Part shown: piece after piece, positions 38,452 through 38,706 of the stretch
Layout of the letters: the number at the start of each line of letters is the position of its first letter
Numbering within the stretch: the stretch's first letter is position 1
Assembly: GCA_011524395.1 (NCBI GenBank)
Contig: WTKN01000377.1
Location: forward strand, 7,935-71,934
Length of the DNA: 64,000 bases
Direction: 5' to 3'
Source of the DNA: Moorena sp. SS36440bin_2
GTDB lineage: Bacteria; Cyanobacteriota; Cyanobacteriia; Cyanobacteriales; Coleofasciculaceae
The notes under the pieces: model-generated
Databases searched by the model: none
The model's input: only the letters and a program-made list of their open reading frames with translations
What the model was told of the DNA's origin: nothing
Translations under genes and position numbers: made by a program

Positions 38452-38706
38452 ATGTCCAGTGAGCAAATCGAGCAATTTGTTGAAGAGGTTCAACAGGATC
38501 CAGCACTGAAAGAGCAACTGCAGCTTCAAGGTAGCATAGATGAAACAATTGATAAAGTTATCGAAATCGCTAAAGAGAAGGGGTATGATTTCACAGCCAC
38601 TGAACTCAAAGAATATATGGAAAATCCTAGCCAGGAAGAAGAAGAGTTATCTGATTCAGAATTGGAAGCAGTTGCAGGGGGCGCATGTTGGCGGTGGTCA
38701 GGTTGA
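38452..38706 (+). CDS. lanA: Nif11-like leader RiPP precursor, core ACWRWSG
   Basis: [15 protein letters not shown]...[13 protein letters not shown]...[13 protein letters not shown] cleavage motif followed by a 7-aa core. Confidence 0.93.

Follow-up and report, generated by a model that had tools for sequence, protein, structure and literature searches.

A predicted orthologue of the lanthipeptide precursor gene mppE, with the core ACWRWSG, in a Moorena gene cluster

A short open reading frame for a peptide precursor lies among genes for a lanthionine synthetase and a series of peptide-modifying enzymes (Table 1) in the window, by which we mean the whole stretch of 64,000 nucleotides of Moorena sp. 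SS36440bin_2 that was analysed. All nine neighbouring cluster proteins are 93-97% identical to their counterparts in another Moorena producens locus (L009), and the cluster genes follow the same order and orientation there, and in the loci L010 and L011, as in the window.

Table 1. Features of the precursor gene and its surrounding cluster in the window, with the evidence for each.
Feature	Position	Strand	Evidence
Class II lanthionine synthetase, MppM orthologue, 1101 aa	31946-35251	+	TIGR03897 LanM, DUF4135 + LANC_like
Arginase-fold + 2OG-Fe(II) oxygenase fusion, presumably MppA, 536 aa	35516-37126	+	pept_arginase 174 bits (below cut-off), FlmC-family 2OG-Fe
Peptide arginase, presumably MppB, 326 aa	37191-38171	+	Three family motifs intact: EEHNEAF, HVDEHSD, LDIDLDYFSC
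Shine-Dalgarno-like GGAGAG	38438-38443	+	8 nt spacer to precursor ATG; direct sequence reading
Precursor gene, predicted mppE orthologue	38452-38706	+	84 codons, ATG start, TGA stop
Nif11-like leader, residues 1-77	38452-38682	+	C-terminal ELEAVAGG; L(X)4L motif Leu66/Leu71
Core ACWRWSG, residues 78-84, plus TGA	38683-38706	+	Ring-forming residues Cys79, Ser83
ABBA-fold aromatic prenyltransferase, MppC orthologue	39146-40294	+	AlphaFold2 model + PDB fold matches
FAD amine-oxidase-like + squalene-hopene-cyclase-like fusion, presumably MppD ('terpene synthase')	40291-42441	-	Pfam Amino_oxidase, NAD_binding_8, SQHop_cyclase_C/N
Hypothetical protein, 356 aa, conserved in cluster	42426-43496	-	Weak TPR-like signal only; 96% identical to L009 gene
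Flavin-dependent Trp halogenase, MppI orthologue	43736-45070	+	Pfam Trp_halogenase E 8e-50; catalytic Lys73 in ITRKFGIKF
DUF6445 2OG/Fe(II) hydroxylase, C-terminal RRE, MppG orthologue	45089-46174	+	Pfam DUF6445 E 5.8e-57
Peptidase-less subunit, NHLP/Nif11-type bacteriocin export ABC transporter	48410-51112	+	TIGR03797 1014 bits, cut-off 709

The precursor is not a chance open reading frame, since its residues 1-77 give a full-length match to TIGR03798 (model positions 1-68 of 68, E = 1.1e-18, 67.2 bits for a curated cut-off of 32.3 bits) and also match Pfam Nif11 (E = 4.6e-15, 56 bits). The leader thus scores above the cut-off for a Nif11-like RiPP precursor and ends in a Gly-Gly-type motif that is followed by a short variable core, while its L(X)4L motif reads LSDSEL from residue 66. 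The open reading frame, its coordinates and its core were all found as originally predicted: exactly seven residues stand after the Gly-Gly of ELEAVAGG, with a single Cys (core position 2) N-terminal to a single Ser (core position 6) and W-R-W between them. Cys79 and Ser83 give the core the combination of at least one Cys and a Ser or Thr able to form a thioether that is expected of a class II lanthipeptide. The GGAGAG before the gene is unchanged across four aligned loci.

A hairpin (AGGUUGAG…CUCAACCU) at window positions 38700-38749 overlaps the precursor stop codon, and its inner stem is retained in the other loci. With an overall folding z-score of only -1.1 it is not significant; a role in stabilising the mRNA or in attenuation is possible, as for elements found after other lanthipeptide structural genes. 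A terminator scan together with folding revealed no intrinsic terminator in the region after the stop codon, and promoter-like sites were no more frequent in the promoter scan than in shuffled sequence.

To the published MppE of Moorena producens PAL (Table S1, PMC11791876), the window peptide is identical at 81 of 84 positions, including the whole core. The three substitutions all fall in the leader (V13 for I, Q15 for R and Q61 for D), which accordingly agrees at 74 of 77 positions with the solved MppE leader, PDB 9ZN4. A large protein collection yielded three further orthologues of 84 aa that are 90-94% identical and have the cores LCWRWST, ACWRWSS and LCWRWST; two of the three carry the labels Moorena producens and Moorea sp. 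SIO4A3. Both the 84-aa length and the C-W-R-W-S segment are common to four orthologues, and C-W-R-W-S is constant in all five known Moorena sequences, where core position 1 is A or L and core position 7 is G, T or S. At the nucleotide level, codons 79-83 are invariant among four loci, while codon 78 (GCA, CTA or GCT) and codon 84 (GGT, ACC or AGC) each carry several changes. The invariance of these 15 core nucleotides is weak evidence when taken alone, because identity among the four aligned loci is about 90% over their whole length, between genes as well as within them; more telling than the invariance of CWRWS is that changes cluster at the two exocyclic codons. A codon-level test for purifying selection on the core was set aside as having no power, with zero synonymous changes in codons 79-83 and loci that are about 90% identical.

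Beyond these sequences, a word-indexed protein search with the precursor returned, apart from two Nif11 peptides that are unrelated, only the three close orthologues from Moorena, and no wider core family. Two pattern searches, in collections that may lack near relatives of the genome analysed, yielded candidates that were rejected. The degenerate DNA pattern for AVAGG-x-CWRW-S had five matches in species-representative genomes, all in GC-rich genomes, out of context and lacking a Nif11 leader, which we attribute to chance. With AVAGG-x-CW-x-W in metagenome contigs, none of the 40 shortest-tailed of the 82 matches combined a Nif11 leader with a short core. Within the data searched, the xCWRWSx core thus appears to be confined to Moorena.

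The near-identical precursor with its ACWRWSG core, together with the synteny with the mppM, arginase, mppC, mppD, mppI and mppG genes, identifies the reading frame, as far as sequence comparison goes, as the mppE orthologue of a strain close but not identical to M. producens PAL. A full-text search for ACWRWSG found two papers, one of them by Saha, Vidya, Luo, van der Donk and Agarwal (Org Lett 2025, PMC11791876), who describe MppE of PAL as a Nif11-like leader of 77 aa followed by ACWRWSG. Nif11 domains are also known in proteins that are not precursors and the tail is very short, so that a free-standing Nif11-domain protein ending in a chance tail could be imagined in place of a RiPP precursor; this hardly deserves credence, as the Gly-Gly and L(X)4L motifs, the neighbouring LanM and tailoring genes and the conservation of CWRWS all speak against it, and it is refuted by the published enzymology, in which the orthologue is a biochemical substrate.

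The LanM scores 1002 bits against TIGR03897, for which the cut-off is 304, and joins a dehydratase domain to a LanC-like cyclase domain with its zinc ligands, as befits the co-located bifunctional synthetase of a class II lanthipeptide. Its zinc site is of the CCG type, with Cys972 in WCHG and Cys1018 and Cys1019 in HLCCG. The enzyme and the LanM encoded at the M. producens locus L009 share 96.8% identity, and the assignment of the window enzyme as the MppM orthologue runs through this intermediate Moorena locus rather than through a direct comparison with MppM of PAL.

The original prediction had foreseen one five-residue lanthionine ring, formed by the LanM with Cys N-terminal to the dehydrated Ser, and precisely this ring is demonstrated for MppE with the identical core: co-expression of mppE with mppM gave a Cys79-Ser83 lanthionine, assigned as DL by degradation (PMC11791876), and MppM is active on MppE in vitro (PMC12537861). 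The MS/MS and stereochemical analyses by which the prediction could be checked are therefore already published for the PAL peptide, with the expected DL-lanthionine as their outcome, and a LanM that neither dehydrates nor cyclises its substrate is not what was observed for MppM on MppE. The ring is already known in detail, and as first stated it is nothing new.

A CCG-type zinc site is also that of ProcM, and the cluster holds a single precursor, so it could be asked whether the LanM is a ProcM-like generalist whose precursors lie mainly elsewhere, with the short peptide as a minor or accidental substrate. This is very improbable in our judgement, since MppM has been shown to act on MppE in vivo as well as in vitro, and the precursor gene lies within the cluster at each of the four loci. 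Further Nif11-type precursors of the same genome that were examined share at most 36-39% leader identity with it, and their cores, which are Lys-rich or Pro/Trp-rich, are devoid of Cys, so that none of them is an obvious alternative substrate of the LanM. One of these precursor pairs (L002/L003, contig C42) carries two tandem Nif11 domains and a Lys-rich tail (AVAGAGKKKPKLKIKRKS); another (L004/L005, contig C194) has a long Pro/Trp/Tyr-rich core after LVGG, again with no Cys.

The two arginase-fold genes lie between the LanM gene and the precursor gene. The shorter protein matches pept_arginase with E = 4.4e-85 (the NCBIfam score of 285.6 being below the model cut-off of 350) and aligns over its full length with OspR (PDB 8BRP, E = 1e-65); its homologues begin at the ATG at 37209. 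All the motifs of an ornithine-forming RiPP arginase (motif list from PMC12703449) are present in this 326-aa protein, and the core offers it a single, invariant Arg81. Judged from these motifs, the enzyme probably converts Arg81 to ornithine. A survey of Nif11-associated arginases was reportedly published by Mordhorst et al. in Angew Chem in 2020; in the literature searched, which did not extend to that survey, no report of an Arg-to-Orn conversion in MppE was found.

In the longer arginase-fold protein, the same motifs are degraded, reading EDHNEAS, HVDKYSD and LDVVLDYF against EEHNEAF, DxHxD and LDIDLDYFSC. Its N-terminal domain is a paralogue of the adjoining arginase (about 52-53% identity) that has lost the metal-binding residues, and a linker of QLD repeats connects it to the 2OG-Fe(II) oxygenase domain. 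This arginase fold looks like one reused as a precursor-binding module.

The prenyltransferase protein has no match in Pfam or NCBIfam. Its AlphaFold2 model (pLDDT 89.7) finds its best PDB folds in the indole prenyltransferases IptA, PriB and 5-DMATS (E about 1e-5, probability 1.0), and the protein is 96% identical to that encoded at L009. The corresponding enzyme of PAL, MppC, is an ABBA prenyltransferase that geranylates Trp82 at C5 (Wakeel, McShan and Agarwal, JACS 2025, PMC12715784) and accepts only the ring-closed, leader-bearing peptide (PMC12715784). Trp336 and Phe340, two residues published for MppC, did not fall into register when the window protein was numbered from the ATG at 39146, in a comparison that used the numbering alone and not the PAL MppC sequence. 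Distant relatives of the prenyltransferase that lie beside LanMs and Nif11 or NHLP precursors were considered as a source of related cores and rejected, the cores being long and unrelated to ACWRWSG; the closest of the distant relatives (L099, 52% identity) has no precursor on its contig. Some homologues of the prenyltransferase, namely P0029, P0033 and P0040 (591-624 aa), occur as fusions with 2OG-Fe(II) oxygenase or methyltransferase domains. Between the precursor and prenyltransferase genes, L009 and L011 carry a GC-rich, partly palindromic insertion of 52 nt (…GGTCTTGGGGGTTCCCCCCATGAGCGACTGCATC…; alignment A2, columns 566-617), which is missing from the window and from L010 and resembles a small mobile repeat.

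Downstream of the prenyltransferase gene, the oxidase/cyclase fusion is 94.8% identical to its L009 counterpart and the halogenase 96.8%. MppI, the PAL halogenase, brominates the indole of Trp80 at position 5 and does not chlorinate; it requires the leader and Lys73, a K73A variant losing activity, and it prefers the ring-closed peptide (PMC11791876). The PAL hydroxylase MppG is a 2OG/Fe enzyme that beta-hydroxylates both Trp residues of the ring (Wakeel et al., 2026 bioRxiv preprint 10.64898/2026.10.04.756588). Read from the ATG at 45089, the DUF6445 protein of the window has His141, Asp143, His229 and Leu13 at the published MppG positions, and Phe at residue 17, where PAL has Leu. The preprint also reports the NMR structure of the MppE leader, PDB 9ZN4, and describes the functions of the remaining mpp enzymes and the final product as unknown (10.64898/2026.10.04.756588); the natural product is termed 'cryptic' by its authors (PMC11791876; 10.64898/2026.10.04.756588).

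These modifications bear on a second part of the original prediction, a cation-pi motif enclosed by the ring at W-R-W. Its persistence in the mature product is unlikely, because both Trp residues are heavily modified (5-bromo, 5-geranyl and two beta-hydroxyl groups) and an intact peptide arginase adjoins the gene, so that all three residues are known or likely modification targets. The accompanying remark that such a small ring would make an attractive scaffold found no support here and had in any case been taken up in published work, by Suzuki coupling on the brominated ring.

The gene for the TIGR03797 subunit lies about 2 kb beyond the DUF6445 oxygenase gene and encodes the sole ABC exporter of the window. 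This subunit stands alone, its usual partners, a C39-bearing TIGR03796 subunit and an HlyD-type protein, being missing from the window. Peptidase_C39 was absent from all the larger open reading frames of the window that were scanned. A dedicated Gly-Gly leader peptidase, such as the C39 domain of LanT or PCAT, is a common and not an obligatory feature of class II lanthipeptide clusters, and the cluster is without one, as is the published mpp cluster (PMC11791876).

At the upstream end, a 289-aa pentapeptide-repeat gene is reduced in the window to its final 17 codons (31899-31949); at the Moorena loci L009 and L010 it runs into the start of the LanM gene. In the window the flank beyond consists of a K+ efflux gene and the ribosomal-protein operon; at L009 it holds a Vault-domain gene. 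The gene remnant and the differing upstream flank show that the cluster has been rearranged at its left border. At the other end, L009 has a DUF7005 gene (389 aa, L009 positions 18364-19533) between the MppG orthologue and a TerB gene, and none is present at window positions 46175-46703. DUF7005 genes recur beside prenyltransferase homologues in distant LanM clusters (L100, L102, L103), a distribution that suggests an uncharacterised RiPP-associated role.

Taken together, these data make it very likely that the peptide of the window, as an mppE orthologue, is closed into the lanthionine ring by the LanM and is then brominated, geranylated and hydroxylated; no sequence evidence was found against this reading. 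We infer the ring steps for the window strain because its precursor is 96% identical to that of PAL and its LanM is intact and syntenic. The structured 77-residue Nif11-type leader would dock the peptide onto each tailoring enzyme in turn. The LanM would phosphorylate Ser83 and eliminate the phosphate to give dehydroalanine, and its zinc site would add the Cys79 thiol, producing one DL-lanthionine ring across C-W-R-W-S. The later steps, all leader-dependent, would act by preference on the ring-closed peptide; they are expected to be the 5-bromination of Trp80 by MppI, the 5-geranylation of Trp82 by MppC and the beta-hydroxylation of both Trp residues by MppG. Ornithine would probably be formed from Arg81 by the peptide arginase, and the peptide is probably processed further by the fusions of degenerate arginase with 2OG oxygenase and of FAD oxidase with cyclase. 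Removal of the leader, by a cut behind Gly-Gly, probably falls to a protease whose gene lies outside the window, and the TIGR03797 ABC subunit probably assists in exporting the product.

As to the mature product, we tentatively propose, while regarding it as somewhat less probable than its negation, a hepta- or trimmed pentapeptide ring in which Arg has become Orn, possibly hydroxylated by the 2OG fusion, and in which the geranyl group has been oxidised and cyclised by the FAD/cyclase fusion. If true, this would be a terpenoid-lanthipeptide hybrid with an NRPS-like set of residues, in which two exocyclic positions diversify between Moorena strains. Another possibility is that the lanthionine heptapeptide is an intermediate only, with residues 78 and 84 trimmed away or the scaffold otherwise remodelled in the mature product. 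The restriction of core variation to positions 78 (A/L) and 84 (G/T/S), with several nucleotide changes per codon, would agree with such trimming, as would the five further tailoring enzymes nearby, three of them without a known role, the absence of a Gly-Gly protease from the window and the published description of the product as cryptic. Relaxed selection on retained exocyclic residues would, however, also give this variability; moreover, the cluster encodes no amino- or carboxypeptidase-like protein, and LahT150 cleaves after Gly-Gly to give the seven-residue ring in vitro (PMC11791876). On balance we consider such trimming or remodelling unlikely.

The value of the window is that it provides a second natural allele of the characterised mpp system. 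This allele indicates that the leader tolerates change at positions 13, 15 and 61 and that, in the core, C-W-R-W-S is fixed while positions 1 and 7 drift; it also indicates that the window strain can do without the DUF7005 and pentapeptide-repeat genes or has lost them. With the mpp cluster of M. producens PAL it shares ACWRWSG, the 84-aa precursor and 74 of 77 leader residues including Leu66 and Leu71, as well as the gene set: LanM, two arginase-fold genes, ABBA prenyltransferase, FAD/cyclase fusion, Lys73 halogenase and DUF6445 hydroxylase. It differs from PAL in the leader residues V13, Q15 and Q61 and in Phe17 of the MppG orthologue, and from L009, which has the DUF7005 gene and the full pentapeptide-repeat gene.

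Among the more distant systems, the prochlorosins (ProcA/ProcM) of Prochlorococcus and Synechococcus likewise combine Nif11-type Gly-Gly leaders with a class II LanM having a CCG zinc site, and rings in which Cys is N-terminal to the dehydro residue have been reported for some of them. In contrast to the window, with one dedicated seven-residue core and a dense set of tailoring enzymes, the prochlorosin system has one LanM serving many diverse and longer cores genome-wide, with little further tailoring. The landornamide A pathway (OspA/OspM/OspR) of Kamptonema sp. PCC 6506 is similar in being cyanobacterial, in its long leader and in its pairing of a LanM with a pfam12640 peptide arginase, and OspM clusters with MppM; the differences from the window are that the OspA leader is of the NHLP type and that the OspA core is longer, with two ornithines. 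Finally, NAI-107 (microbisporicin) is also a 5-halotryptophan lanthipeptide whose flavin-dependent halogenase, MibH, acts on the cyclised peptide, but it is a class I lanthipeptide of 24 residues, and MibH chlorinates after leader removal, whereas MppI is an obligate, leader-dependent brominase.
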